64,000 nucleotides of DNA from Haliotis cracherodii (GCF_022045235.1 NW_027266275.1:31248001-31312000); one strand, 5' to 3'; positions 651-62,700 are shown, counted from the stretch's first letter. Made by a program: numbers and translations. The notes: a model not told the origin generated them from the letters alone.

Positions 651-3600
651 GTACGTTTTGTGCTGCGTACATACTTCAGTTGTCATGTATATTTAACATG
701 GGCAGATTTAACGACAGTGGAAACGTTTAAAGGCAAATCACGACGAAAGTAGTGGCAGGCTAATCGATGTGACATGAGGTATAGGTATCCATGAGGCTTA
801 AATCTGGCGTGGGCTTGGTCAGGTTGATGGTAGCGATGGGGGTAGTATTAATTGATGGTAGCAGTGGAGGTGGTATTGGCTGATGGCAGCGAAGGGGCTG
901 GTATTGACTAATGGTAGCGGTGGTATTGACTGATGTTGGATGCGGTATCAAAGGTACATGTATGAAGGTAGTTTAAGTGAAGGTACATGTGTGATGGTAG
1001 ATTACGTGAAGGTACATTTATGATGATAGTTGAAGTGAAGGTACATTTATGATGATAATTGAAGTGAAGGTATACTGTACGATGGTAGTTTAAGTGAAGG
1101 TACATGTGTGATGGTAGTTTACGTGAAGGTAAGATGTGCGATGGTAGTTAAAGTGAAGGTACATGTATAATGGTAGTTTAAGTGAAGGTACACTGTACGA
1201 TGGTAGTTTAAGTGAAGGTACACTGTACGATGGTAGTTTAAGTGAAGGTACATTTATGATGATAGTTGAAGTGAAGGTACACTGTACGATGGTAGATTAA
1301 GTGAAGTTACATTTATGATGATAGTTGAAGTGAAGGTACACTGTACGATGGTAGATTAAGTGAAGGTACATTTATGATGATAGTTGAAGTGAAGGTACAT
1401 TTATGATGATAGCTGAAGTGAAGGTACACTGTACGATGGTTGTTTAAGTGAAGGTACATTTATGATGGTAGTTTAAGTGAAGATACATTTATGATGATAG
1501 TTGAAGTGGAGGTACACGTGTGATGTTTTTCAAGCGAAGGTACATGTGGGATGGTTGTTTAAGTGAAGGTACATGTATAATGGAAGTTTAAGTGAAGGTA
1601 CACTGTACGATGGTAGTTTAAGTAAAGGTACATTTATGATGGTAGTTTACGTGAAGGTAAGATGTGCGATGGTAGTTAAAGTGAAGGTACATATATAATG
1701 GTAGTTTAAGCGAAGGTACACTGTACGATGGTAGTTTAAGTGAAGGTTTATTTATGATGATAGTTGAAACGAAGGTACATTTATGATGATAGTTGAAGTG
1801 AAGGTACATGTGTGATGGTAGTTTAAGTGAAGGTACATTTATGATGATAGTTTCAGTGAAGATACATTTATGATGATAGTTGAAATGAAGGTACAATGTA
1901 TAATGGTAGTTTAAGTGTAGGTACACTGTACGATGGTAGTTTAAGTGAAGGTACGTGTATGATGGTAGTTTAAGTGAAGGTACAATGTATGAAGATAGTT
2001 GAAGTGAAGGTACATTTATGATGATAGTTGAAGTGAAGGTATATTTATGATGGTGAAACCATAGTCAAGTTTTAACCTCTAATCAAAACCAATATGAGTT
2101 TTGACGACGTTTCATTCAACTCATCACAACAGGTAAGGGGATAGATGGGGAAGATTTGAGGTCCATCACCTACAACGAACTTGGAACGAAGACCATCACA
2201 TGTGACGTCAGGACCCCCCATGAGAATTTGACAACTTCGCATAGAGTGAACGTGGAGGTGGCTGTGGCGGCGGACAACTGCCGCATCACCACCAACCACC
2301 CCGTACAGCACGGAAGTAAGTACTTGAATTGATAAACAAATTGAAAAAACAAACAGATATTGTTTCATTCTTTTGCGTGTATACAGTTAAACCATAATAA
2401 AGCAAAGGGTCCCGTTCGCAAGATAATCGTCTCAATTGTCACGTCCGATTTAATACACAGTGACACAAATATGGAATAATGTACGAGTGTTGACCTGCCA
2501 ATCAACTATAGTACGGAAAAACGGGGTAGGTCTTGAACTGTAGGTCATTTCTAGTATAATAAACTAAACTGGCTGCTTGTCTTGTATACACCCATGCTTG
2601 ATGGTGGCTGAAATTGAAACAAGGAAGAATTGGTTTTGTGAAAGCGAAGCATTTGATATCATAGTTGTGGCTTTGAACTTTAGTAGTTTACAATGTTTCA
2701 TCGACTGTTTCCAGGTTAGTAACGTTCTGATAATGTTTGTAACTTTTTTTATCAAAATCAGTTTTCAAGTGCATACAATTTTTTCCCCGGCAGTCTACGT
2801 CTGGCCGTAAGAATGTTATCATTGCATTAGATTATATAATGCCTTAAACAGGCGCGAATTGAGCATGAACCCTAAGTGCTGTGTTTCTCACGTCTCCCTG
2901 CTAACTGCTAACCTACACCATGCAATCTGACTTATCAGACATGACTCAGGATATTATGAGAACTACTAGGACTGTTATCAATGAAACCGACCCGTGAAGA
3001 TCCGGGGTAGAATAGGTCTTCAGCAACCCATGCTTGCCGTAAAAGGCGACAATGCTTGTCGTAAAAGGCCCCTAACGGGATTGGGTGGTCAGGCTCGCTG
3101 ACTTGGTTGATGCATGTCATCGATCCAAACTGATGGATGCTCATGATATTAATCACTGGATTGTCTGGTCCAGACTCAATTATTTACAGACCGCCGCCAT
3201 ATAGCTGGAATATTGCTGAGTGCGGCGTTAAACAACAAACCAAGCCAACCAACCCAATGAAACCGAATCATCATATACAAATGTTTTGCATTCATTTCTT
3301 CAGAGAAGATCGTCTACTCGGTGCTCTGTAAGAAGGAACCCATGCCGACTAATGCCTTTGTCATGATTGACCATGGGGACGGTACACCCCCTCAAAAAGT
3401 GATGTTCTCCGGAAAACCAGGCGTTCCACAGACCATATCATACGACCCACCAAAGGATGGACATTTCATTGCCAAAATATCATTGAGCAATGGCGGTTCT
3501 TCAATAAATGCGACACTTCCGGTAACATATAATATATACCATGTTCCTTACCCACACCGCCTCCATGGTTAAGTGGTAGAGCGGAAGGTCGAGGGTTCGA

Positions 3601-6600
3601 TCCCCGGCCACGTCATATCAAAAGACGTTAAAAGATGGTACTTGTTGTTACACTATCTGGCGCTTGGCATTAAGGGGTTAAAGCAAGGGCTTGTCTGCTT
3701 ATGGAATCAACACGTGCATTCACGTCTCTATATAGTTCAATACTCACGTCTGGAATACACACGTGTTCATGCATGTCGCAATGCATTGTAAATGCAATAA
3801 TCTTGAACGCGACGTTAAACTCCATTTCACCTCATTTCAAGTAAAACAATACTGTGAAAGGGGCTACAACGTATTCCTTCAAAGAAGATCCGGGTTAAAA
3901 TTGGCCTTCAGTAACCCATGCTTGCCGTAAGAGGCGACTCACGGATTCGATTGGTCAGCCGCGCTGACCAAGTTGATGCATGTTATTGTATCCCAGTTAC
4001 TTAGATCGATGCTCATCCTGGATTATCGTGTCCATTATTTACAGACCGTGGTGATATAGCTGGAATATTGGTGAGTGTTGCGTTAATCAACAAGTAAACA
4101 GACATGTCATTCACGCATATTTCAGTCAGTGTGTTTCTTTCAATAATCTATTGTTATCAGGCCGGCAGTTACTCGCGTCTTGCGGGCAAGCCCAGAAACT
4201 TCAAGTGCATGTACAAACCTGTAGTCCCTGTCAACAGTAACTTGACAGGGGGAATTGAGGGCATCAACGAGAAGTTCCCCACAACATCTCCGCTTATATG
4301 CAACTTACAAATGGACCAGGGTAGGTCAAACACTCATAACCTCAATATAACTAATCACACCCCGACTTCACCTGTATGCGGCCAACAAGTAGGCCAGAGT
4401 GAGTTAATGACACTCCACCTGCAGTTATATGCGGCCAACAAGATGTCAGAGTGAGTTAATGACGCTCCACCTTCAGTTATATGCGGCGTACAAGGTGTCA
4501 GAGTGAGTTAATGACACTCCACCTTAACCTATATGCGACCTATAAGGTGTCAGAGTGAGTTAATGACACTCCACCTTCACCTATATGCGGCCAACACGTA
4601 GGCCAGAGTGAGTTAATGACGCTCCACCTTAACCTATATGCGGCCAACAAGTAGGCCAGAGTGAGTTAATGACACTCCACCTTAACCTATATGCGGCCAA
4701 CACGTAGGCCAGAGTGAGTTAATGACACTCCACCTTAACCTATATGCGGCCAACAAGTAGGCCAGAGTGAGTTAATGACACTCCACCTTAACCTATATGC
4801 GGCCAACACGTAGGCCAGAGTGAGTTAATGACACTCCACCTTCACTTATATGCGGCCTACAAGATGTCAGAGTGAGTTAATGACACTCCACCTTCACTTA
4901 TATGCGGCCTACAAGATGTCAGAGTGAGTTAATATACTCCTACTCCACTTATATGCGGCCTACAAGTAGGTCAGAGTGAGTTAATCACACTCCACCTCAA
5001 GGAATCTAGTCTAATCTAAGTGTCTCCAAAATAAGGCCTATGTTATGAAGTTTGAGATGACATTGTGGACCCGTAATGCAAAGTGCATCCAATGAGTCAA
5101 CACACGCCTTATACACTGTCCAATGTTGTGTTGGCAGGAACACCTGTAAATTACGTGATGACAGCTGCCCACGAGACAGGATCACCTGTTGTAGTGTGTA
5201 ATCAAAGAACACTTCCAATTAACTGTAAGATTGCAAAGGTAAGGTTATTTACGAATGTGCTAATTTGTGAAGGCACTACATAACATTTGACGTCATCAAA
5301 TAAGCAGTAACGTGTGACGTCTTTCCAACAATAGTACAGTTAGCTGTCGGTGTTTGAGATTCGTAAAATAACATATCAAACTGACTTACAAAATACGTAT
5401 TAGTTATATGAAGGATGACCCACTGAAACATCTTAGGAATTAACTGTCCCTCATGAAATCTGTCTCTCCCCATGGGTCAGGTTTTAACACATTACCCCTA
5501 ACTCTTCGTAACTCGTGGTTAATTTCTCAATAATTTACTAAAATACTTTTATGCATTATATTAAATACGGATATGTATCAGATAGAGAAAGATGAATAAA
5601 TGTTTGTATTACTTCTAACATATACAGATGAATTACTTTATATACCTGCAAATGTAAAATAGTTAAAGCCCACTTCTACCACCACAACGTACATTCAACT
5701 GCCTTACTGATACTATAGTTTTCTATATGGATATGTTAGATCAGAGAGAACATGCTAAGTAGTTAGAACAGTTTGCTTATCCGGTTTACCACATGACCTG
5801 AAACCATTTACATTTTCCCTCATAAAGATATCACTTTGTCAGGGCACTCGATGAGGTAGAAACCTAATACTCTCTATATATTCTTGCCTGTGTTTCAGCC
5901 TGGTTCATATGAAATTGACGTCAAAGTCATCAACCCACTAGGATCATCATCTCCCATCTCCGCAGACCTGAAAATGAGGGCTCCTGTTAAGGGCCTCCGC
6001 GTGACAGATCTCACTCCAAAAGCAAAAGTCAATGAAGAAAAGAAGTTTAAAATAACTTTTGATTCCATCGGTGATGAAACATGCTTAAACATCGATTTTG
6101 GTGACAATGGAGAAACATCAAATTATGGCGAGGAGCAGTGGTGTGATGACCCAAAGTCTTCATTTCAAGGTGGGAGCTATATCGATGAGCTGACGACCCC
6201 ACTTGAGGTAACAAGAACCTACTCTGCCAATAGGAACTATGAACTGAAAGTAACAGCTGCTAATGCATTTTCAGATGCAATAGCTTCTTTGACATTTTCA
6301 TTCAGCTCAAAGGGCTGTGCCAAACCTAAAGTTACCATTGAAGACGCTGTCGCAGACATAACGAGTCCAGTGATGTTTGAGAAAGGTGTCCGGGTTATCA
6401 TGAGAGGAAAGACCAATATAACCTGCAGTGCTAGCCTGAAGAATACGAAATCCTGGACTGTTGAAGAAGTGGACTCTGACTCTGGATCCACTCTCAAAAC
6501 ATTGGATGTCACATCTCAGACTGCAGAGTTAGTAATGAAGGCAAAGACTGTTCCATACGGTCTCTACAAGGCGTCATACAGTGTAAAGATGGACCTTTCT

Positions 6601-9600
6601 GACGGGAGTGATTTGGTTGAATCAGCTTTCACCTATTTCAAAATAACTAAATCGAAACTTGTGGTTGTGATGGAAACAGGAGGCATCAGTGAAGTTGACC
6701 GTGGTAAAAACCAGATGGTAACGTTCAACCCAGAACAATACTCCTTTGACCCTGACGTTGAGAGATCGGACGATCAGGTGGGTAACGTTTCTGACCTTTT
6801 TTTCAATCGGTACAAAACTTGTTGCATTTGTTTGACATTTTTGCAAGCGCATCATGCACTAAATGCGGGATCATCAACGTGTCTGAATTTTACTCGCAGG
6901 GCTTTGAGAATTTCACATGGGGATGTCTCTTGAAGAAGAAAGTGTCGCCTGAATCAGCGTGTGACTCCTTGAACTCCAGGACAGGCGGCTCCATCTCCTT
7001 CAACACAAGCGTCTTCGAGGCCGGGGAACAGGTACAGCTCACATGCAACGCGACCAAAGACACACGCTCATCTGTCGGGAAGATCATCATAAACATTGTG
7101 GAGGGCAAACCACTCAACCTATACATTGAGTAAGTCTTGATAGATCTTCAACCTGTACATCGAGTAAGTCTTTATAGATCTCAACCTTACACGAGTGAGT
7201 CTTTATATATCTTCAATTTGTAAAACGAGGAATGTCACATTACCTGAAAAAAATCAGCTTTAAGCCAACGTTAATTCAACGACCAACTCAGAGGATACTA
7301 CTAGTATCAAGTCCTTCGGGTAACCTTATTTGGAACAAAGACGACTCAGACTAGTGAAGATTATATAATGATGATATCAATTTCTCTACAATACACTCAG
7401 TCTGAGACACACGTTCTGGTATGCCTTCTTATAAGTGTCAAGCAAGATTGATGTTATCAAGAATAGCATGTATGTACATGTAGCATGGGTACAATCCTGA
7501 CTGTTGGTTCCAGGCCTGTCGGTGGCAGTATGTCGGTTCAGCTGGCTGACTCTAAGATGGTGTCCTCAAAGGAGAGGTTAGCTCTGAGGGTTCGCTGCAA
7601 GGACTGTGAAAAGGTCAAGCTGTCCTGCGAGTGGACGGCCTATTCGTATGCGGAAGGGTGGCCCTGGAGAGATTACTACGCGAACGAAGTGGCTGGCCAC
7701 ATCAACGGTGAGCGGACCGTACCTCTTCAACTATTAAAAGTTTAAAGCAGGATGCTAGAATAAATTATGGGGCGGTCGGGTAGCCTAGTGGTTAAAGCGG
7801 TCGCTCGTCACGCCGAAGACCCGGGTTCGATTCCCGACATGGGTACAATGCGTGAAGCCCATATCTGGTGTCCCCCGCCGTGATATTGCTGGAATATTGC
7901 TAAAAGCGGCGTAAAACCATACTCACTCACTAGAACAAATTCTGATCAGGTGAATTTACCAGTAGGAGCCTTTGGGAATGAACGTAGATCGATAGACTAG
8001 TTTGCAATGTCTTTTCTGATGAACAGCCTTACGCCGTACTGTCTGACCGCCTCCGCAGTCTCGTGGATAGAGCTTCTAACCAGAGAGTCGAAGGTCGGTG
8101 GTTCGATCCCCGGCCGCGTCACAGCAAACGACGTTAAAAGATGGTATCAGTTGTTGAAAGTTCGGAGTCAGAATAGTGTGGCTGAGTTTGGGATCCATGT
8201 TAAACTGAGGCTTGGTATATCAGGGGGCTAGCACTATCAAATCGGAATACGTCCGTGTTAGTACAAGCATGCCGCCACACAGAAACGTGCATGCACGTCA
8301 CTTTATGAGTGTACTTATCTTGACCTTATACTGTCTTCTGATTTCTCCGTGACTTCAATATTGACCTGTGAAGATCCAGGGGAAGAATGGATCTTCAGCA
8401 ACCGATGCTTGCCGTAAAAGGCGATTATGCTTGTCGTAAAAGGCGACTAACGGGATCGGGTGGTCAGGCTCGCTGACTCGGTTGATGCATGTCATCGATC
8501 CCAAATGCGTGGATCGATGCTCATGATATTAATCACCGGATTGTCTGGTCCAGACTCGATTATTTATAGACCGCTGTCATAAAGCTTGTATATTGCTGAG
8601 TGCGGCGTTAAACCACAAACCAACCAACCAGCCAACGACTTGTGGAAGAACAGACAAAATTCTATATCCTTTCCATATAACACGTGTTACGTTAGGCAAA
8701 CAGCTATGAATTAATTCCATTAACAGCTATTACATGACGCCATTTAATCAAATTTCTTGTTCATGTCCAGCGTGGCCATAGTCAGTAATATCATTCAATG
8801 CTAAACATGTTGTCTCGCTATCAGGTCTGAAGAAGGAAACCATCACGATCAAACCGTCCCTGTACAACATCCACGCCGATGTCACCAAGTACCGCTTCGC
8901 CTGCAAGTGCCGGCAAGGCGAAGGAGACTTCAGTAAAGCCGCCCTAAACATCGAGCTAAACCCCCCTCCCAAGCCCGGCACATGTGTCATTTCTCCCAAG
9001 AACGGCACCCTCAGCCTTGAAAACAACAGCCCTTTCAACGTCAAGTGTAGCGGATGGACGGACGAGACGGAGATTGTGGAATATAAGTTCTACTGTGAGT
9101 AACTGCATACGGATCAAGCGACACTGACAATTGTTTGTTCCCGATGCCTTGACGAGGCTTGCGTTCTTACTGGTTGTTTTTTTTGCAGTGCAGTTGTTGT
9201 CCAGTTGTATTACGACAGAGCTTGTTGAAATAAACGCAACGTTATACGTAACATCTAAGTCGTAATATGTGACCTCTACAGATTCCAAAGCGTTCTCCTT
9301 TCATTGCATTATGATCTAGCGTTTCTTATTAAACTGAATTTTCATACAGCATATGGTCCAACTGAAACCCTTATTGTACTTACAGGCACCCACAAGAGCA
9401 ATAAACTGCATAACCAGATCAATACATTCAAAGAGGCCGACGACGTCAACATCGAGCCCCCGCTGGGAGCTGACAATGATGACTACCGTGAAAACGTCTT
9501 CGTGTCCGTCAAGGACTCCATGGATGCATCGTACACTTACGACCTTGGCATCATACAGGTAGAACTTTTGTTTTAAGGCATTTGAGTAGTAAATAGATAT

Positions 9601-24600: not shown

Positions 24601-27600
24601 GCGACTAACGGGATCGGGTGGTCACGCTCGCTGACTTGGTTGATGCATGTCATCGATCCCAAATGCGTGGATCGATGCTCATGATATCAATCACTGGATT
24701 GTCTGATCCAGACTTGATTATTTACAGACCGCCATCATATAGCTGGAATATTGCTGAGTGACAACAAACAAACAAACAAACCAAATTATCCGTATGGTTT
24801 GAATAAAAAATATATACTTGCATTTCAACGATGGTAAGACAAACATCACACACATGAGTTTCATGTTCTGATTCGTATATTTTGAATAAGTTGTTTCTGT
24901 GAAATATTTAGACGAAAATCAATAATAAGAAACTGTCCTCTTTTAAGACCACTGGGATCTCTGAACTACGCCCGTGTGTGGCACGACAACTCCGGCAAAG
25001 GCAAGTTCGGGTCATGGTACCTGAAGTACCTCGTTGTCAGAGACGTGCAGACCGACCAGAAGTTTGTCTTCATCTGTAACAGATGGTTCGCTGTCGAGGA
25101 GGACGATGGACAGGTGTGTTAATTCGGAGAAAAGCCTGTTCTGTTTGAAATTTTGAGGTGGTTCATCGTAACATTTAGCGGTGTTTAATCAACGATGAAC
25201 CACCTCAAAATTTAAAACAGAAAAGGTTTATCTGTATTCTGACATACATAAAAAGCGTTATTTTTTTAAACGGACTCGTCGTCCATTTCTTGGAATCGCA
25301 ATGGTACAACCCATCGTTAGGTGTGTGTGGGGGGGACTTCTAAAGAGACACGATTACTGAACGGGGTTTATGTCTTTCGGTCTATATTGTTGAAATCATA
25401 TGTACTTATGGTACAAAATAACCAGGAAATAACAGAACATTGATTTATGCAGGACCTAGTTTTGCGTGGTGAGATCATTATCAATACAACACCCCTTCAT
25501 TCAAATAGAGTCAGGGGCGGGCGGGTAGCCTAGTGGTTAAAGCGTTCGCCCGTCACGCCGAAGACCCGGCGTGATATTGCTGGAATATTGCTAAAAGCGG
25601 CGTAAAACCATACTCACTCACTCAAATTGAGTCAACTATGACCTAGATCAGGCCATGCGTGAAGTTCAAACTTGGTGACCTAACTGATGTCGTTAATGTC
25701 GCAGATTGAAAAAGCGACTTATTTGTCTACATTATGCCGGGGTCATACCTTAAAGTTAGCAGCTTTGATTGTTTGTTTGTTGTTTAACACCGCACAAAGC
25801 AATATTTCAGCCTTTTGCCGGCGGTCTGTAAATAATCGAGTCTAGACCAGACAATCCAGTCGCCTTTTACGGCAAGCCTGGGCTGCTCAAGACCTATTCT
25901 ACCCCGGATCTTCACGGGTCTAAAGTCAGAAGTGGTTATCGCTCATGAGTAAACTTAATAAATCACATAAGATCATCCTTCAATGTCATGGTAAAATGAA
26001 GAATAATGTACACCAGCAATAAGACATAAAGTACCTAAATGTATTGGAGTGTTCTTGTCTAGAACTCAGTCTTCGTGTGTGTTGTGACTGCAGGTTGACC
26101 GTGTGATCCCCGTGGCTGGACTTGCCCAGATGACGGAGTTCGCGCACCTGTTCTCGGAGAGAACGAGAAAGAACCTTGTTGATGGTCACCTGTGGTTCTC
26201 AGTTGTCGCCCGACCCCCTCAGAGTCGCTTCACCCGTGTCCAGAGAGTGTCCTGCTGCCTATGTCTCCTGTACGCCACCATGTTGGCTAACGCCATGTTC
26301 TACAAGAAGTCAGAAGATGAGGCAGGAACATCTTTCACGTTTGGTCCCTTTGCTTTGAGTCCTCAACAGGTAACGATATAGTCATTCCAATTGGCTTTAC
26401 GCCTGACACGAAACAATGCTTCCTATCAGTATACTAATTGACAACGGATGTAAAATATTTCCCATTGTGAGTGTGTTTGATTCCTCAAAACTAATCAAAA
26501 GTGTAGATTGCATGTTAAGAATAATTTCTAATCTAGAAGGAAGGGAATACACCTTCAGTTGAAATTGTCGATCAACTTGGAACATTGGAATCCCCATCTA
26601 TAATAATATGCTTACGCCTGCTGAGTATGTGCAGTGAAATTACATGAATTTATTATTAATTCTTGGAACTACGTGAAGCGTGATGCATTATTTATGCCTT
26701 GGACTAATAGATATTCCCAATTGGATACCTTATATTACCATTAACAAGATCATCATTTCTCATTTATACGTGAGCGCCGATTATGTATTTACATATGTGA
26801 ATTCTGTTTACAGATCTATATTGGCATTGTATCCAATCTGATCGTATTTCCTGCAAACTTCGTGGTCATCATGCTGTTCCGGAAGTCACGAGCGAGAAGA
26901 AAGCGTCCGTCTCGTCTTGAAGAAGCGCTGAAGAAAGTGCCCAGTGGCGGTACGACATCGGTCAGCGACGTTCAGCCGGATGTGGGAGGGATCTGGGCAA
27001 TCGGTGGGAAATCAAGCGGTCAGATCCAGTCTAGACCCGAGAGTTCCTTCTCTCAGTCTTACGATCGCCCTCAAAGCAACTTGTCCCACAGAGGTGATAG
27101 AAGGAGGACAAGGAAACCGAAAAAGGAACTACCCTGGTTCTGCCGCTACATCGGTTGGCTACTGTTATGGATGGTTACTCTTGGGGCGGCTGCCATGGTA
27201 ACATTCTATGGGATCAGCTTCCAGGACGACAAATGCAAGAAATGGATCACGTCGATGCTGGTTTCGTTCTTCACGTCCATCTTCGTCACGCAACCCATCA
27301 AAGTGAGTGACAGAAACATAGGACTGTCCAATAACATACAGTAAACTACGGTTATAACGAACACGCTTATAACGAACTTACTGATATGACGAACTTACTT
27401 TTTTGGTCCCGACTATTTGCTGTAGTTATGTTGTATATATGCTTATAACGAACTACGGTTATAACGAACTAAAATTAGTAGTCCCTTTGAGTTCGTTATA
27501 ACCGTACTTTACTGTATCTGAATGGACGGGCATTCCTCGCAGGCCAGGCTTTTTTTAATTTGTTGATTTTGTGCGGTTGACGTTTTGTATTTCTTGTGTG

Positions 27601-36438: not shown

Positions 36439-38266
36439 GGGGGGGCTGCTTGTACTAGTCCGGACTGATGTCGATTCATAGTGCTGGCCCATATGCCGCA
36501 GTTTATCATGAATACCCCACTCAGACACAGACACTATGTATCGTGACATAGACGGAAGTCACAGAACAGGTGATCCTGCCAAATATTCGTAGGGGAAAGG
36601 GAAACACCCTCTTTTCTAGTCATGTTCCTATCCTACATGAAGAAACGTGAGATGGTGCAGATTGTGTCCAAGTCGAAGGGGGACGGGGGCGCCCTTTACG
36701 ACGAGCCAAAATCTCTGCCGAAACTCGTACATTCCAAGGGACTTGCTGAAACACGGGTAAGTAACTGTGTTCTATTTGTCAATAACTGGACGACGCGGTT
36801 TCCCCCGTCACGAAGCGTTCTCAGTTTAATCGAGAAATAGTGAGTGAGTGAGTTGGGTTTAACGCCGCATTTAACAGTATTCCAGTCATATCACGGCGTG
36901 TCAGCTTAATGTGGGAGGAAAGCTCGAAGTGATGCAGTAATCGAGAAATAAATGTTCTAAAATTGAAGCTGAAGTTCCGATTGTCTCAAATGATGATTAT
37001 TGAAGCGCTGTGAGCACGTGTTTAGCTTCACCGATATCCATCTGTAATTTCACTATCACTACCACGTGCTTCTGTTTACACGAACATTGATCGAACAGGT
37101 ACTAACTGTTGATTGGCTGACATTTCTCATTTGCATATTTATTATCCAATGCGGTCAGAGGAGCTTGACTCCCTCATCGATCAATGTCATGTGACAGTTC
37201 GCGTGCAGGCTACAGGCACAGTCGACGAGTGGTAAACTTTCCACTGGCCATTGAAGACATACAGTCATCTCTGTGTATTTTGTCAACTAGCTTGACTTTG
37301 TTTTGAATACTAAACTTTTATAATATTGACTTTGTGATATCATTTGTAAAATTCTGGGATATCACGTGAGATACCTGATTGTGGGACCCGTGAAGACCCG
37401 GGGTAGAATAGGTCTTGATCTTAGAATCGTAAAAGGCGACTATGCTTGTCATAAGAGGCGACAAACGGGATCGGGTGGTCAGGCTCGCTGACTTGGTTGA
37501 TGTGTATCATCGTATCCCAATTGCGTGGGTCGATGCTCATGATGTCAACCACTGGATTTTCTGGTACAGACTCGATTATTAACAGACTACTGTTATATAG
37601 CTGGAATATTGCTGAGTGCGGCGTTAAACAACAAGTAAAGTAAAAAAAAATGATTGTGGTGTGGGTTCTTCAAACTTTCTTTATACACGTCGCTATTTAT
37701 AGATCATTTGATTTAACGTTGCTGAATGTGACAATTTATACCGTGAACATTTAACTTAATTTGAACGCACGTTATTTTATTTTATATTTTATTATCTATT
37801 TATTTATTGGTTTATTGGTTTCTTTCTTGTGTTTATTCCAAATAAGCATTTGTTTTAGGGGTTTTTTAACGTCTTGCTTTTGGGGAAATTATCTTTGATC
37901 ATACGGTTATAGTGTTGTCCTGACATTATGTATTTTGATCAGAAGATTATGTTTCTATTGACAGGACTGTCTAACCTGACAGATGATAAACTCATCTATT
38001 TCACTAATCTACTGTACATAATTATTTTGCTTATTCATCTGGAATACCTCATTATACTATCCAATATCATGGTTTTCTTTCTTTCTTTTTAACTTTTCTA
38101 CTCTATTGGCCCCAATCATACTCTCGTCATTCTCATGCTTGACACGCTTATTGTTTTTTCTGTTTCTTTTTTTTCTTTAAATATCAACACACTGTGGTAT
38201 CAACCAAGACAAAGACTAACTACAACAAATAATCAGATATCATATCAAATTGTATATTTTATATAA

Positions 38267-39562: not shown

Positions 39563-42500
39563 ATGGCACTTCAACATACAGCGCTGTTTTTCTTCATATT
39601 GGTATGTAGTAAATATTATATTTGTATTTGTTAAGATAAACTATGTAACACTTTACAGCGTTTTACCTTCTTATGATCAAATATAATTGTTATTACAACA
39701 TTTTTCTTGTATTTTTTCAGTTTTACGAAGTGTTTCCAAGTGAAACAGGTAGGTACAATATGACTTGTACTATCTTGAAATTGACATCATGTACATTTCA
39801 TTCGTTCTTGTTTTAAGAAAATATTTACGTTTGAGCGCGTACCATGCCTAAACAAATTGACAAGGGTTAAATTTGGTCGGGAAAACCGTTCCTTTTTATT
39901 TCGTGCTTCAAACACTCCACATCCTCGTTGCATGTACGTTTAATATTAAATTGTTTTATGTTTTATATTTCTATGTGATGATGACTCATAACGTCATAAC
40001 GTCATCATCGTGACAGAACATAGTGATCCGATAAATACATTTAAGAGTTGGGACAAGGTAAAATTAACATCCATTTTTACGACACGGCAATCATTGTAAC
40101 TAATGTTATATTTGGGATAACACTTTCTAAGTAAAGTACATATTCTCGTACTTTTTTGGGTTGAGTCCCATCCGGGATTCGAACCCACACTGCCAGAATG
40201 AGGCACCTATTCGCCAGCACACAAAGTCAGCGAAGTGCTGGCGATTAGGTGCCTCACCCAAATATAACATTTGTTACATTTGACCACTTTCTAAATGGCA
40301 TTGTGTGTTCATGACCATCATTTTCGTAAGTAAACGCGACAAAACCCCTTTCATAATCACAGGAATTCTCAACTAAAAGCAGAGTTCACCGTACGACTCC
40401 GACTATATCGTGAGCACGTGTTTATGAATCACTATCAAATAGTGATGATAACCAGATGTACGCGAAAATATGAACCATCCGTAACAAAGGTCAGAAACAC
40501 ATGCAAAGGCAAGTCAATTGTTCACAAAGTCAAGTACAAATAGGAAATTGCGTCGGACTTCATAAAGACATTTTGAATGAATGTTGTAACATGGCGCAGT
40601 CAACAATATTCCAGCTATGTGACAGCAGCCTGCAAATACCCGAGTCTCGGTCAGTGAAACCAGTGAATAATGACGTGAGGCAACGATCCTCGTAGATCGG
40701 AGCAGATCAGTACGATAACACATGCCAGTCATGTGGCTAAAAAAGAATTATTCATTATTTTAACGATTATGGCAGAATGCATTTACCCATTAGAATACAC
40801 ATAAACTGGAATTCAAACACTTTCAGTTTAATGACACGAAAATACATATTTATATATATCTGCACATTCAATCATTTAACCGTCGATAGACGGAGTGAGT
40901 GAGTGAGTATGGTTTTACGTCGCTTTTAGCAATATTCAAGCAATATCACGGCGGGGACACCAGAAATGGGCTTCCCAACTTCCATGTCGGGGATCGAACC
41001 CCGGTCTTCGGCGTGACGAGCAAACGCTTTAACCACTAGGCTACCCGACCGCCCCTTTAACAGTCGAGAAATCCAGTAAAACGCTTCACTGTCTTTAAGG
41101 CAGTGATAAGTACACTTTTTTTCTTTTTTTCACTTTTTATTTATTTGTATCTGATATGATTTAGTCCCTATTAAGCGGCACTGTTGTTCCAGGGTCGTAC
41201 TATATTTTTCACCCGTGAAAGCCCGGGTTAGAATTGGTCTTCAGCAACCAATACTTGTCGTAACAGGCGACAAACGGGATCGGGTGGTCAGACTCGCTGA
41301 CTTGGTTTGCTTGAGTCGATGCTCATGATATCAATCAGATTTCTGGTCCAGAGTCGATTATTTACAGACTGCCGTCATATAGCTGGAATATTGCAGAGTG
41401 CGATGTTAAACAACAAACAAACAAACTATATTTTTTCTTTCAAAACTCTCTTATACACACTTTCTAGACTTTCCCCACACACCCTACACCACTACTTCGA
41501 CTCAATACTACCAAGGGGGCGGTCGGGTAGCCTAGTGGATAAAGCGTTCGCTCGTCACGCCGAAGACCCGGGTTCGATTCCCGACATGGGTACAATGTGT
41601 GAAGCCCATTTCTGGTGTCCCCCGCCGTGATATTGCTGGAATATTGCTAAAAGCGACGTAAAACCAAACTCACGCACTCACTCACTTAATACTACCAAGG
41701 GAAACGCATAGTGTTTATACAACCATGTACCTTGACATGTGTCATGTTTACATTGAATATACGTTAAGGAAACTAATACGACAGGAGTATTTACCAAACA
41801 TACAGTTGTATCTTAGATATGTAGTTCCAATCAGGTTTAAACTTAGGTGTTTTCATTAAACATGCATGTCTACTGTAAACATTTACACACACTAAAGCAA
41901 CAGTCGCTTAGATACAGAATGTATATATTCAGATTTGCGGTATCAATATGTCTGTAAACAATGAATCTTGATACCCTGTGTATGTCCCAGCTTGTGAATA
42001 ATTGATATGAGCATGAATCATTAATAACACACGTGCATCTAATTCGCCGGAAAGTTGCGTGTGTTGCGTTGAATAGTGGTATGAGTTTGGGTGTACTCAT
42101 ACTGTTGTATGTCGGTCGCCATAGCGATATGTTTCATACGAGTATATCGCTGATATAGGTCACAGACAAGATACCTAGTTTCATATCAAACAGCAGCAGA
42201 AGATTTTTTGGTCGTATTAATTATTACTATTTTGTCCTCCACTCCAAAAGGAATCTGTTTCGGTGGATAATCTGCACTGGTTATTTTATTGCGTTGATAA
42301 TTTATATTTGTATAAAAAAAATTGGCTCAAGAAAATAATATCGGTTGTCGAAATATAATTGAAATAAAACTACATATATTTTGTCTCAAAATGGTATCTG
42401 TCAAAGTAACGCTTACCTAGATATTTATTAGCCCATGCTGAAAGTAGCATCAATTTATTACCAATGAGACTGCAGAGCGCATTTACTCCGAATATAGTGT

Positions 42501-59784: not shown

Positions 59785-62700
59785 GGTTAAAGCGTTCGCT
59801 CATCACGCCGAAGACCCGGGTTCGATTCCCGACATGGTTACAATGTGTGAAGCCCATTTCTGGTGCCCCCCGCCGTGATATTGCTGAAATATTGCTTAAA
59901 GCGGCGTAAAACCATACTCACTCACTACAGTGTGGACCCGTGAAGATTCCGGGGTAGAATAGATCTTCAGCAACCCATGCTTGCCGTAAAAGGTGACTAT
60001 GCTTGTCGTAAAAGGCGGCTAAGGGGATCGGGTGGTCAGGCTTGCTGACTTGGTTGATATATGTCATCGATCCCAATTGCATGGATCGACGCTCATGATA
60101 TTACTCACTGGGGTGTCTGGTCCAGACTCGATTATTTACCAACCAACTACAGTGTGAAATTTAAGGTCAGGGTTGAATAGTGTATGCTTGACTCCTGGCA
60201 TGATGGAGAGTCAGGCTTGAATAGTGTATGTTTGACACTTCACGTGGTTAAGTGCCAGGGTTAAATTTTGCATGTCATGACGGAGAATCAGGCTTGGTTC
60301 GTCCATGTTAGACTCCCCACATGGTCGAGAGTCAGGGTTGAATCTTGTATGACTGACTGTTCACATTGCGGAGATTCGGGGTTGAATCCTGTATGGCTGG
60401 CACCTACTAACAAGACAGAGAGTAAATGTGGAACATAGTATAGTTGAATTCATCAGGGTTAGTAGTGTATGGCTTATATTTTGGGTCGAGCATTGCATGT
60501 TTGATATCTCGACATGACACCTAGTCAGTGCTAAACGTTCCATGGTTGTGTCCCCGTAACAGGTGTTCCCCAACACGGCTAACATGGGAGACTGGTCAGC
60601 TCAACAGAAGAACAACGCTTTGAACGAGATCGAAAAGGTTACTGCTTCTGGAGATCAGAAATCAGTCACGGAGAAACTCACCAAGCTGGCCTCCCTGCTC
60701 AACGCTGACAGTAAGGGATATAACTAACTAATACCAAACTATTAACCATATCTTCCAGCTTACACTTTTCGAGAAAGCTTGGTGTCGTCACTGATTTTCA
60801 GTGATCCATTCATATAGTCTGCACCGCTTGTTGTCTTTTATGGCCATTGGAATCAGTTTCGGTGGATAATCGAAACTTCATATATAGAAAGACGTAGGAG
60901 TAACCTTGCTACAAAGCGGCAAAGCAAAGACTGTTATTTCAGCTGAGGTAGACGTGTTATAAAAGCGACAACACCCTTCCAATAATCATAAGAGTCAATT
61001 GTACGATTCCGACTATATGTATCATAAACATTTGTTTATGAATCAGGGTTGAATCTTTTACGCTTGACTCCTTACCTGGCAGGGAGTCAGGGTTGAATCT
61101 TGTACGCTTGACTCCTTACCTGGTGTAGAGTCAGGGTTGAATTTTGTATGTTTGACTCCTTACATGGAGGAGAGTCAGGGTTGAATAGTGTATGTTTGAC
61201 TCCTTACATGGCGGAGAGTCAGGGTTGAATCTTGTATGTTTGACTACTTACATGGCGGAGAGTCAGGGTTGAATAGTGTATGTTTGACTCCTTACATAGC
61301 GGAGAGTCAGGGTTGAATAGTGTATGTTTGACTCCTTACATGGCGGAGAGTCAGGGTTGAATAGTGTATGTTTGACTCCTTACATGCTGTAGAGTCAGGG
61401 TTGAATAGTGTATGTTTGACTCCTTACATGCTGTAGAGTCAGGGTTGAATAGTGTATGTTTGACTCCTTACATGGCGGAGAGTCAGGGTTGAATAGTGTA
61501 TGTTTGACTCCTTACATGCTGTAGAGTCAGGGTTGAATAGTGTATGTTTGACTCCTTACATGGCGGAGAGTCAGGGTTGAATAGTGTATGTTTGACTCCT
61601 TACATGCTGTAGAGTCAGGGTTGAATAGTGTATGTTTGACTCCTTACATGCTGTAGAGTCAGGGTTGAATAGTGTATGTTTGACTCCTTACATGGCGGAG
61701 AGTCTGAGGTATGGTTTATGCTTTCAGAGGCACACAATAAACCAGGGGCTCCGGGTCTGGCATTGACAGAGTTCCAGCCCATGGGTGGGGTGAGTATCCT
61801 GGTACCCTGTATTATCGTTCAGATTACAGTATGCCTGTATAAAGATGCATATGGGGTTTTTTCTAATCAGCCATGGATTTGCTAGGCAAATGTGCATTTC
61901 TGTTGTTGTATACTGAATGAAATGTTATATTAAAAAACTATTGTTCTCTTTCCTTCAGGTGGGTGTTGATATCAGTGGTGTTGCTGGACCATCAAACATG
62001 GGCATGGTCAATTTTGGAAACGCTGGGGCGGGTGCTCCAGGGATGGGCAATTTTGGAGCCGGTGGGGCGGGTGCTCCAGGGATGGGCAATTTTGGAGCCG
62101 GTGGGGCAGGTGCTCCAGGGATGGGCAATTTTGGAGCTGGTGGAGCGGGTGCTCCAGGGATGGGCAATTTCCAGCCTGGTGGGGCCGGGGCACCCGCATT
62201 ACCAGGATTCCAAATGGCTGGCGCTGGGCCTCCAGGACTACCGGGATTTCAAATGGCTGGCGCTGGGGCACCAGGACTTCCAGGACTACCGGGATCTCCA
62301 ACTGGTGGCGCGGCCGGGTTACCTGGCATGGGCAGTTTTGGAGCTGGTGGTGCCGGGGCTCCTGGGATGGGCAAGTTTGGAGCAGGTGGGGCGGGTGCTC
62401 CAGGGATGGGCAATTTTGGAGCCGGTGGGGCGGGTGCTCCAGGGATGGGCAATTTTGGAGCTGGTGGAGCGGGTGCTCCAGGGATGGGCAATTTCCAGCC
62501 TGGTGGGGCCGGGGCACCCGCATTACCAGGATTTCAAATGGCTGGCGCTGGGCCTCCAGGACTACCGGGATTTCAAATGGCTGGCGCTGGGCCACCAGGA
62601 CTACCAGGACTACCGGGATCTCCAACTGGTGACGCGGCCGGGTTACCTGGAATGGGCAGTTTTGGAGCTGGTGGAGCCGGGGCTCCTGGAATGGGCCAGT

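Follow-up and report, generated by a model that had tools for sequence, protein, structure and literature searches.

Introduction

The retroposons most closely related to the family described here are the 'LINE-promoter' (LP) SINEs reported by Matetovici et al. (2016) from Haliotis, oysters, a periwinkle and scallops, which include Hdi_LP/Hmi_LP, Lsa_2, Sgl_LP and the heads of pectinoid MESC elements (PMC4758252). According to the available text of that paper their head of ~70 nt is common to the 5' ends of Nimb-17_LMi, I-3_DR and RTE-9_CPB, and a promoter role was suggested for it but called untested, with the partner LINE called unidentified (PMC4758252). Among structured RNAs the closest systems, again as described in the accessible parts of the papers cited, are RNAs resistant to exoribonucleases (xrRNAs); these occur in viral 3' UTRs (PMC8374639), are often tandem (PMC13556198) and in plant viruses stop Xrn1 at the first stem's base (PMC12397905).

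The DNA studied here, a 64,000-nt stretch of Haliotis cracherodii (the window), carries copies of a SINE whose 5' end is a LINE-derived head of ~70 nt and not a tRNA; its TSDs vary and it terminates in short tandem repeats. This abalone family is classed here among the LP SINEs, the comparison with the published Haliotis consensus being one of length (255 bp), and by eye its head matches the 'Nimb-17 homology' block in supplementary figure S2 of the published description (PMC4758252). The SINE family and its head are thus already published. The fold of the head, its viral distribution, the partner LINE and the combination of an HDV-like fold with the head module were not found in the accessible literature, nor did that literature yield a paper with the core sequence or with an xrRNA in a transposable element. 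The analysis below indicates that the head module is a real and, as modelled, well-supported structured RNA of a known element family, with a putative function.

Results

Copies, ends and abundance of the SINE family

When the window was searched with GACCCGTGAAG, allowing at most one mismatch, seven matches were observed against 0.49 expected by chance, and these lie where a previous reading of this DNA, made from the sequence alone, had located its copies. Copies are ~270 nt long, are bounded by TSDs and end 3' in CAAA/CCAA repeats, and exact matches to the first 13 bases correspond to at least 27,728 SINE heads in the 1.18 Gb genome. Of the six copies that the sequence-only reading named as TSD-bounded, five (2989, 15108, 24522, 37385 and 59935) have exact TSDs of 9–13 nt that abut the first G, whilst the 25920 copy has an exact TSD of only 6 nt. 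The copies and associated features are listed below in window coordinates.

2979..2988, + strand: left TSD, 10 nt, of the 2989 copy; right TSD copy at 3255-3264
2989..3254, + strand: SINE copy of the young subfamily, comprising LP-type head, body, LINE-like tail and CAAA/CCAA repeats (sequence comparison)
3053..3074, + strand: second tandem copy (22 nt) of P5 together with the 3' strand of S3, characteristic of the young subfamily; its stem is broken in the 2989 copy
3199..3233, + strand: SINE tail homologous to the 3' end of an I-group LINE (comparison run on the 15108 copy)
3877..4093, + strand: old degenerate SINE copy, placed at ~3883 in the sequence-only reading; 39.7 bits with the covariance model
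8363..8633, + strand: SINE copy, no TSD found
14839..15108, - strand: SINE copy, 13-nt TSD
24522..24785, + strand: SINE copy, 12-nt TSD
25757..25920, - strand: SINE copy with internal deletion, exact TSD only 6 nt
37385..37650, + strand: SINE copy, 9-nt TSD, S3 region changed
41210..41424, + strand: older-type SINE copy with one hairpin, first base C not G, 11-nt TSD
59935..60145, + strand: SINE copy without most of the tail, 11-nt TSD

The 22-nt hairpin duplication lies inside 2989-3085 and had previously been overlooked. The reported absence of a tRNA head and of A and B boxes was borne out, as ARAGORN found no tRNA gene in the SINE, pattern searches found no A- or B-box, and there was no Rfam match at E<=5 over any copy in the window. 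The small-RNA head with A and B boxes that characterizes Pol III-type (tRNA/5S/7SL) SINEs is therefore lacking from these copies. The 5' end had also been described as unusual in its invariance, which overstates the case: when 61 copies were picked by their body in 662 kb, 19 began at G, 10 matched from the next base, 11 from positions 3–14 and 21 had no recognisable head, and several older-type copies have C as their first base. TSDs were flush with the SINE 5' end in 14 of 16 TSD calls at 29 printed loci, and an extra untemplated G was not seen at the junction. Three small-RNA runs of a related species were uninformative, giving 39 reads in total with no pile-up at the SINE 5' end. For a SINE of 270 nt a constant 5' end is nothing unusual; what calls for explanation is how these elements form one when they have no Pol III promoter.

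Further arrangements of these repeats were observed. Two partial SINE copies are fused tail to tail in opposite orientation at window positions 22263-22559, and tandem arrays containing the SINE head are present at C1:3567519-3582908 and C1:4975551-4975875, with periods of ~2.4 kb and 104 nt. A tRNA-headed SINE with (ACTC)n ends, present at window positions 7774-7917, 20491-20634 and 41521-41664 and at others, carries the same tail and, given this common tail, probably uses the same I-group LINE. At 3556-3840 in the window there is a tRNA-like-headed SINE with a CACCT-repeat end that by eye resembles the Haliotis MESC SINE of the LP-SINE paper (PMC4758252).

Predicted fold of the head module

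A 17-base core pattern retrieved at least 122 metagenome stretches and 9 viral contigs, and 18 representatives chosen by eye among full heads, with decayed and half-head rows excluded, formed alignment A1. In A1 90.4% of cells are paired with a covariation of 0.484, compared with 0.179 when shuffled and at most 0.096 in slid registers, the shuffle counts not being probabilities because the aligned families are related. A second, largely overlapping alignment that includes LINE heads gave 88.9% paired cells and a covariation of 0.499, and RNAalifold recovers S2, S3 and P5 unaided. This covariation spans 17–18 animal and viral lineages and supports a model of the head in which an H-type pseudoknot at the 5' side precedes a second pseudoknot that has hairpin P5 in its linker. 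The module so defined takes up the SINE's initial ~70–90 bases, and its two pseudoknots are predicted to be stacked. The predicted elements of the 2989 copy, all on the + strand, are as follows.

2991-2994 with 3003-3006: stem S1 of the 5' pseudoknot; 79–88% of cells paired, one pair with two-sided change
2995: single conserved U linker
2996-3002 with 3015-3021: stem S2; 6/6 pairs covary
3007-3014: conserved linker ending AGAAU(A)
3022-3025 with 3031-3034: stem S3, directly 3' of S2; 93–94% paired, 3/4 pairs covary
3027-3029 with 3077-3079: stem S4 of the second pseudoknot, S3-loop CCC with GGG; register differs between families
3035..3052: hairpin P5 (GYCG-UAARAGG-CGAC), first copy, conserved

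S1 pairs the 5' CCCG with the CGGG that follows the next strand and is the weakest helix (p=0.017 versus mismatched partners), S2 comprises 6–7 bp and S3 4 bp. None of 10000 mismatched pairings equalled S4 across all 18 rows, and this helix recurs in the later-found viral contig L683. P5 shows no two-sided change and its invariance is partly built in, the loci having been retrieved by a pattern that contains P5; LINE and viral variants alter the P5 loop and the UAA. When only the five viral rows are considered, support for S1 and for S4 is weak (p about 0.07 each), and S2 in fixed register fails in two of ten held-out rows (L387 and L032). Folding of single sequences was uninformative, with unremarkable z-scores of -0.4 to -1.4 and the outer stem drawn in three of four folds.

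The four-helix fold proposed in the sequence-only reading survives in two of its helices. Its GAAGAYC/GRTCTTC stem is present with all three listed pair states and corresponds to the fully covarying S2, and its GYCG/CGAC hairpin is real. The outer stem CCCGT/ACGGG, paired in only 34.7% of cells across 18 families (p=0.91 versus mismatched partners), and the pseudoknot between loop GGGT and ACCC, which has no two-sided change (p=0.61 versus mismatched partners), give way to other pairings; mollusc copies alone permit both these pairings and the revised fold to be drawn. The more general proposal of a conserved pseudoknotted RNA module, derived from a LINE 5' end and outside the Rfam ribozyme families, is upheld. 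The sequence-only reading could not fit its fold to HDV-like, hammerhead or twister ribozymes; when searched with Rfam, neither the window (E<=5) nor 10 related loci (E<=2) gave a covariance-model match to hammerhead, twister, twister-sister, pistol, hatchet or hairpin ribozymes. HDV-like, twister, pistol and hatchet ribozymes were each considered as an identity for the module and rejected, there being no Rfam match on it; an HDV-like fold is also at odds with the lack of P3/L3 between S2 and S1 and of P1.1 or a catalytic-C strand.

Partial and multiple modules were also present among metagenome sequences. Two metagenome repeat families, with 12 and 11 of 119 heads, retain the core and lack the 5' half of the first pseudoknot; in families of this kind (L048 and L079, for example) an unrelated 5' part precedes the module's second half. 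At L074 1371-1513 a metagenome repeat contains two full modules in tandem, as do viral contigs L031 and L683. The metagenome heads were not followed by any identifiable LINE ORF.

A likely partner LINE and its HDV-like leader

Among 20 stretches around endonuclease matches there are 10 LINEs of one family, intact or nearly so, that carry the module ~400–500 nt upstream of ORF1. ORF2 of these elements contains the APE endonuclease, RT and RNase H domains of the I-group, and their 3' end is common to the SINE. Comparison of the 15108 tail with four LINE 3' ends gave scores of 41, 46, 41 and 33 (shuffled maximum 33, mean 21), the match being short (34–67 columns) and common also to the tRNA-type SINE. 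The SINE body has no match to the LINE 5' UTR (score 21), and the SINE is therefore a chimera rather than a plain internal deletion. From these sequence comparisons, an I-group (Nimb/I) LINE with the same module and a matching tail is the likely partner. A second I-group LINE family (L616-L621, L623), which is intact and has a (TAAG)n end, contained no sense-strand module in the stretch examined.

Young LINE copies begin 57 nt upstream of the module, and in six of the seven full LINEs having a TSD it is flush with G1 of an HDV-like leader. When 30 LINE heads were picked by the 3' half of the module, 26 began at HDV G1, three within 3 nt of it and one at the module. The 57-nt leader has a match to Rfam RF02682 that ends one base before the module; at 27.5 bits (E=0.0056) this match does not reach the gathering score of 44. 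It has a P1 of 7/7 pairs with a G1-U wobble, a CCUCG loop, a P2 of 6/6 pairs, a GCUAA strand and a minimal P4, and is on this model an HDV-like ribozyme fold. The leader is present at L607 2296-2352, where the module follows at 2353-2430, and in L605-L614, L622 and L624-L653, and the HDV-like descriptor gave no match upstream of 123 cores other than its own. Between seven LINE subfamilies the leader is 98% identical and the module 92%, compared with 79% for ORF2 DNA. An older lineage with other S2 letters has the HDV part in none of 20 loci, which were read by eye and are degenerate, and from its sequence appears to start at the module.

Genome-wide there are 779 exact module-type heads of the young LINE family. 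Dense LINE clusters, with dozens of heads per megabase, are located at C2 about 20.8-21.7 Mb, C1 38.5-43 Mb and C6 4.2-5.6 Mb, and may represent either an insertion preference or a piRNA-cluster-like region.

The module in viruses and other contigs

The whole module is present in seven of the nine first viral matches, and a relaxed pattern added one among 13 matches. These represent six RNA-virus lineages (L031, L032 with L037, L034, L036, L038 and L683) and one large DNA virus (L033). In all six RNA-virus lineages the module is on the coding strand in the 3' UTR, ~5–125 nt past the last stop codon in the contig and near the contig end, and in two (L031 and L683) it is tandem. Viral ORFs match RdRP_4, RdRP_3, nodavirus capsid, Peptidase_A21 and Viral_coat, with RdRP or capsid families in five of the six lineages and no Pfam match for the L031 ORF. 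A covariance model (R1) built from animal repeats only scores the viral copies at 41.9–68.3 bits and the later-found virus at 45.3, compared with 26.6 for chance core-only matches. Assembly chimerism is argued against by L032 and L037, which are separate assemblies with an identical junction. That a model of animal repeats finds the module in viral sense 3' UTRs argues that its conserved function acts at the RNA level, and the module is, judged from this distribution, one that works as RNA.

In the 212-kb AT-rich DNA-virus contig the module lies between two genes (L033 1453-1523, 59.5 bits): a DNA-ligase-like ORF is located upstream of it, the next start codon follows after ~150 nt, and S4 is unpaired. 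Loose patterns in viral contigs gave chance matches, with no model hit in the 100 loci scanned of at least 120, and further viral scans (two read by eye, another covering 100 of at least 120 loci) revealed no new virus. Among prokaryotic genomes there was one model match (L350) in the 100 loci scanned of at least 120. This match, at L350 1975-2051 on a 3-kb contig, and that at L387 98-178 beside simple repeats are both in prokaryotic genome bins and are probably eukaryotic contamination.

Discussion

The reading we prefer, held tentatively and at slightly less than an even chance, is that the module is a block to 5'-to-3' exoribonucleases with a new exoribonuclease-resistant fold. Somewhat more tentative again is the wider proposal that it constitutes a new xrRNA class, the first in cellular genomes, which has passed among retroposons (LINEs and SINEs), RNA viruses and a large DNA virus, the SINE, with neither promoter nor ribozyme, being carved from host transcripts by a cellular decay enzyme. 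A SINE copy inside a host transcript would be trimmed from its 5' side by Xrn1 or Xrn2 until the enzyme stalled six bases before the conserved U, and the enzyme of the I-group LINE would then capture the freed uncapped RNA through its tail and integrate it, giving a TSD. The 5' end lies six bases before this U in three families, the first letter being G (15/17), A (13/17) and G (15/15) respectively, and this fixed distance fits a ribozyme equally well. Exonucleases of the Xrn type need a 5' monophosphate and do not start on a 5'-OH. An exonuclease block acts only on RNA that those enzymes enter. The product of an HDV ribozyme carries a 5'-OH (PMC11331408). In the young LINE the upstream HDV-like ribozyme would leave such an end, so that the ribozyme would be copied along and the module would be a second protection, and in viruses the module would make or protect a 3' UTR subgenomic RNA. 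One exonuclease-block mechanism thus fits the SINE and old LINE, which end at the module, the young LINE, which ends at the ribozyme, and the viral 3' UTRs. Counting against it, simple H-type frameshift pseudoknots do not stall Xrn1 (PMC10321173), and in certain families just the module's second half is preserved. Retention of the module in HDV-bearing LINEs, where it does not set the 5' end, at the higher conservation relative to ORF2 DNA given above, hints at another job, and recent 5' UTR swapping could also explain it.

The exonuclease block is preferred because the upstream ribozyme, which the young LINE keeps, would be shed in each cycle if the module itself cut or initiated at its edge, whereas a block would leave it in place. 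This bears directly on the two functions put forward in the sequence-only reading. An unclassified self-cleaving ribozyme cutting six bases before the conserved U would account for exact, flank-independent 5' ends and for conserved unpaired nucleotides, LINE 5' ribozymes are common (PMC5786205), and the HDV-like fold joins at exactly that position, where it could tie up the upstream base in its P2 helix and so prevent cleavage. We nevertheless regard such a ribozyme as doubtful, and clearly on the unlikely side: 29 of 30 young LINE heads begin 54–57 nt upstream, at the separate HDV-like fold, and so keep the stretch that such a cut would remove with the module still conserved, in a linear RNA virus a cut where the 3' UTR begins would detach the end of the genome, and there is no Rfam ribozyme match. 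An internal Pol II promoter with a secondary role for the RNA fold, as suggested by Matetovici et al., is improbable. The head does occupy the 5' end in several LINE clades, as it does in SINEs free of Pol III boxes, and L1Tc Pr77 is both promoter and ribozyme (PMC4758252), but compensatory changes occur in RNA viruses, which have no DNA stage, a start at the module edge would omit the HDV part present in those same 29 heads, and junctions carry no extra G.

Two further explanations involve binding partners. Through its hairpin and AGAAU linker the module may bind a conserved host factor, such as an initiation factor, the ribosome or a protective protein, and aid translation or stability of uncapped RNA, the SINE 5' end following from that protection or from another step; we consider both parts of this explanation possible but unlikely. 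It is favoured by a 19-nt core that is near-invariant across molluscs, other animals and viruses, and by retention of the module upstream of ORF1 in HDV-bearing LINEs. Viral translation enhancers of the BTE type have a conserved 17-nt hairpin. Viral 3' UTRs also bear cap-independent translation enhancers (PMC12397905). A non-coding SINE, however, has no translation need, a host factor alone does not account for a 5' end whose distance from the first pseudoknot is constant, and the invariance of the core is partly ascertainment, the loop and UAA being changed in LINE and viral variants. Recognition of the module by a LINE protein, which would end reverse transcription or join the 5' end as with the R2 5' pseudoknot, is consistent with clean TSD-flush junctions and with the binding of pseudoknotted RNA by R2 protein (PMC12222951). 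This is very improbable, as reverse transcription passes 57 nt beyond the module in the young LINE and neither the RNA viruses nor the reported presence in Nimb and RTE clades would be explained.

Should the exonuclease block be correct, it would represent a third way for a retroposon to form its 5' end, besides promoter and ribozyme, and would be a cellular xrRNA of the kind anticipated by a 2021 review (PMC8374639). It would also account for the tens of thousands of copies that SINEs attain with no promoter, and a nuclease block of such small size would be of use in shielding uncapped RNA templates. Whatever the mechanism, this is a structured RNA family missing from Rfam and common to retroposons and unrelated viruses.

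Comparison with known systems

To our knowledge the topology of the module matches no described xrRNA class (1a, 1b, 2, 3 or coremin), and Rfam gave no xrRNA-class match on the module copies. Likeness to the viral xrRNAs (classes 1-3 and coremin) lies in a compact pseudoknotted RNA at the start of the viral 3' UTR, sometimes tandem, whose 5' end coincides with the first stem's base or is adjacent to it (PMC8374639, PMC12397905). In accordance with this, the module lies on the sense strand at the 3' UTR start in six of six RNA-virus lineages, tandem in two, and has a pseudoknot (S1/S2, support for S1 being modest) next to the putatively protected 5' end. The module differs in having two consecutive H-type-like knots with an inserted conserved hairpin, rather than a three-way junction or a P1/P2 hairpin (PMC10321173), and in being present also in cellular retroposons; its resistance is a candidate property, the likeness being one of predicted structure. 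The hallmark of xrRNAs is a ring of 15–16 nt encircling the 5' end, and the likeness here is drawn from secondary structure alone.

The LP SINEs share with the abalone family a LINE-derived, tRNA-free head of ~70 nt, TSDs, terminal tandem repeats and a length of ~255 nt, and the published scallop LP head has, by eye, the same hairpin core, the AGAAU linker and a 7-bp S2 with other letters (PMC4758252). The AATATA hexamer named for LP SINEs is missing from the abalone copies, and the paper, in its available text, proposes a promoter and gives no RNA fold, viral occurrence or partner LINE (PMC4758252). HDV-like ribozymes of non-LTR elements (R2, L1Tc Pr77 and RTE) define LINE 5' ends, and the young LINE carries such a fold (PMC5786205, PMC11331408); this is a separate 57-nt unit upstream that is missing from the SINE, whereas the module is without P3/L3, P1.1 and a catalytic-C strand. 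Bipartite non-autonomous LINEs (Bov-A, RIME, NARTc and R2 SIDEs) similarly combine a LINE 5' part with a LINE 3' tail and have no small-RNA head (PMC5786205). Unlike these, the abalone SINE has a body without a match to the LINE 5' UTR, and is hence a chimera.
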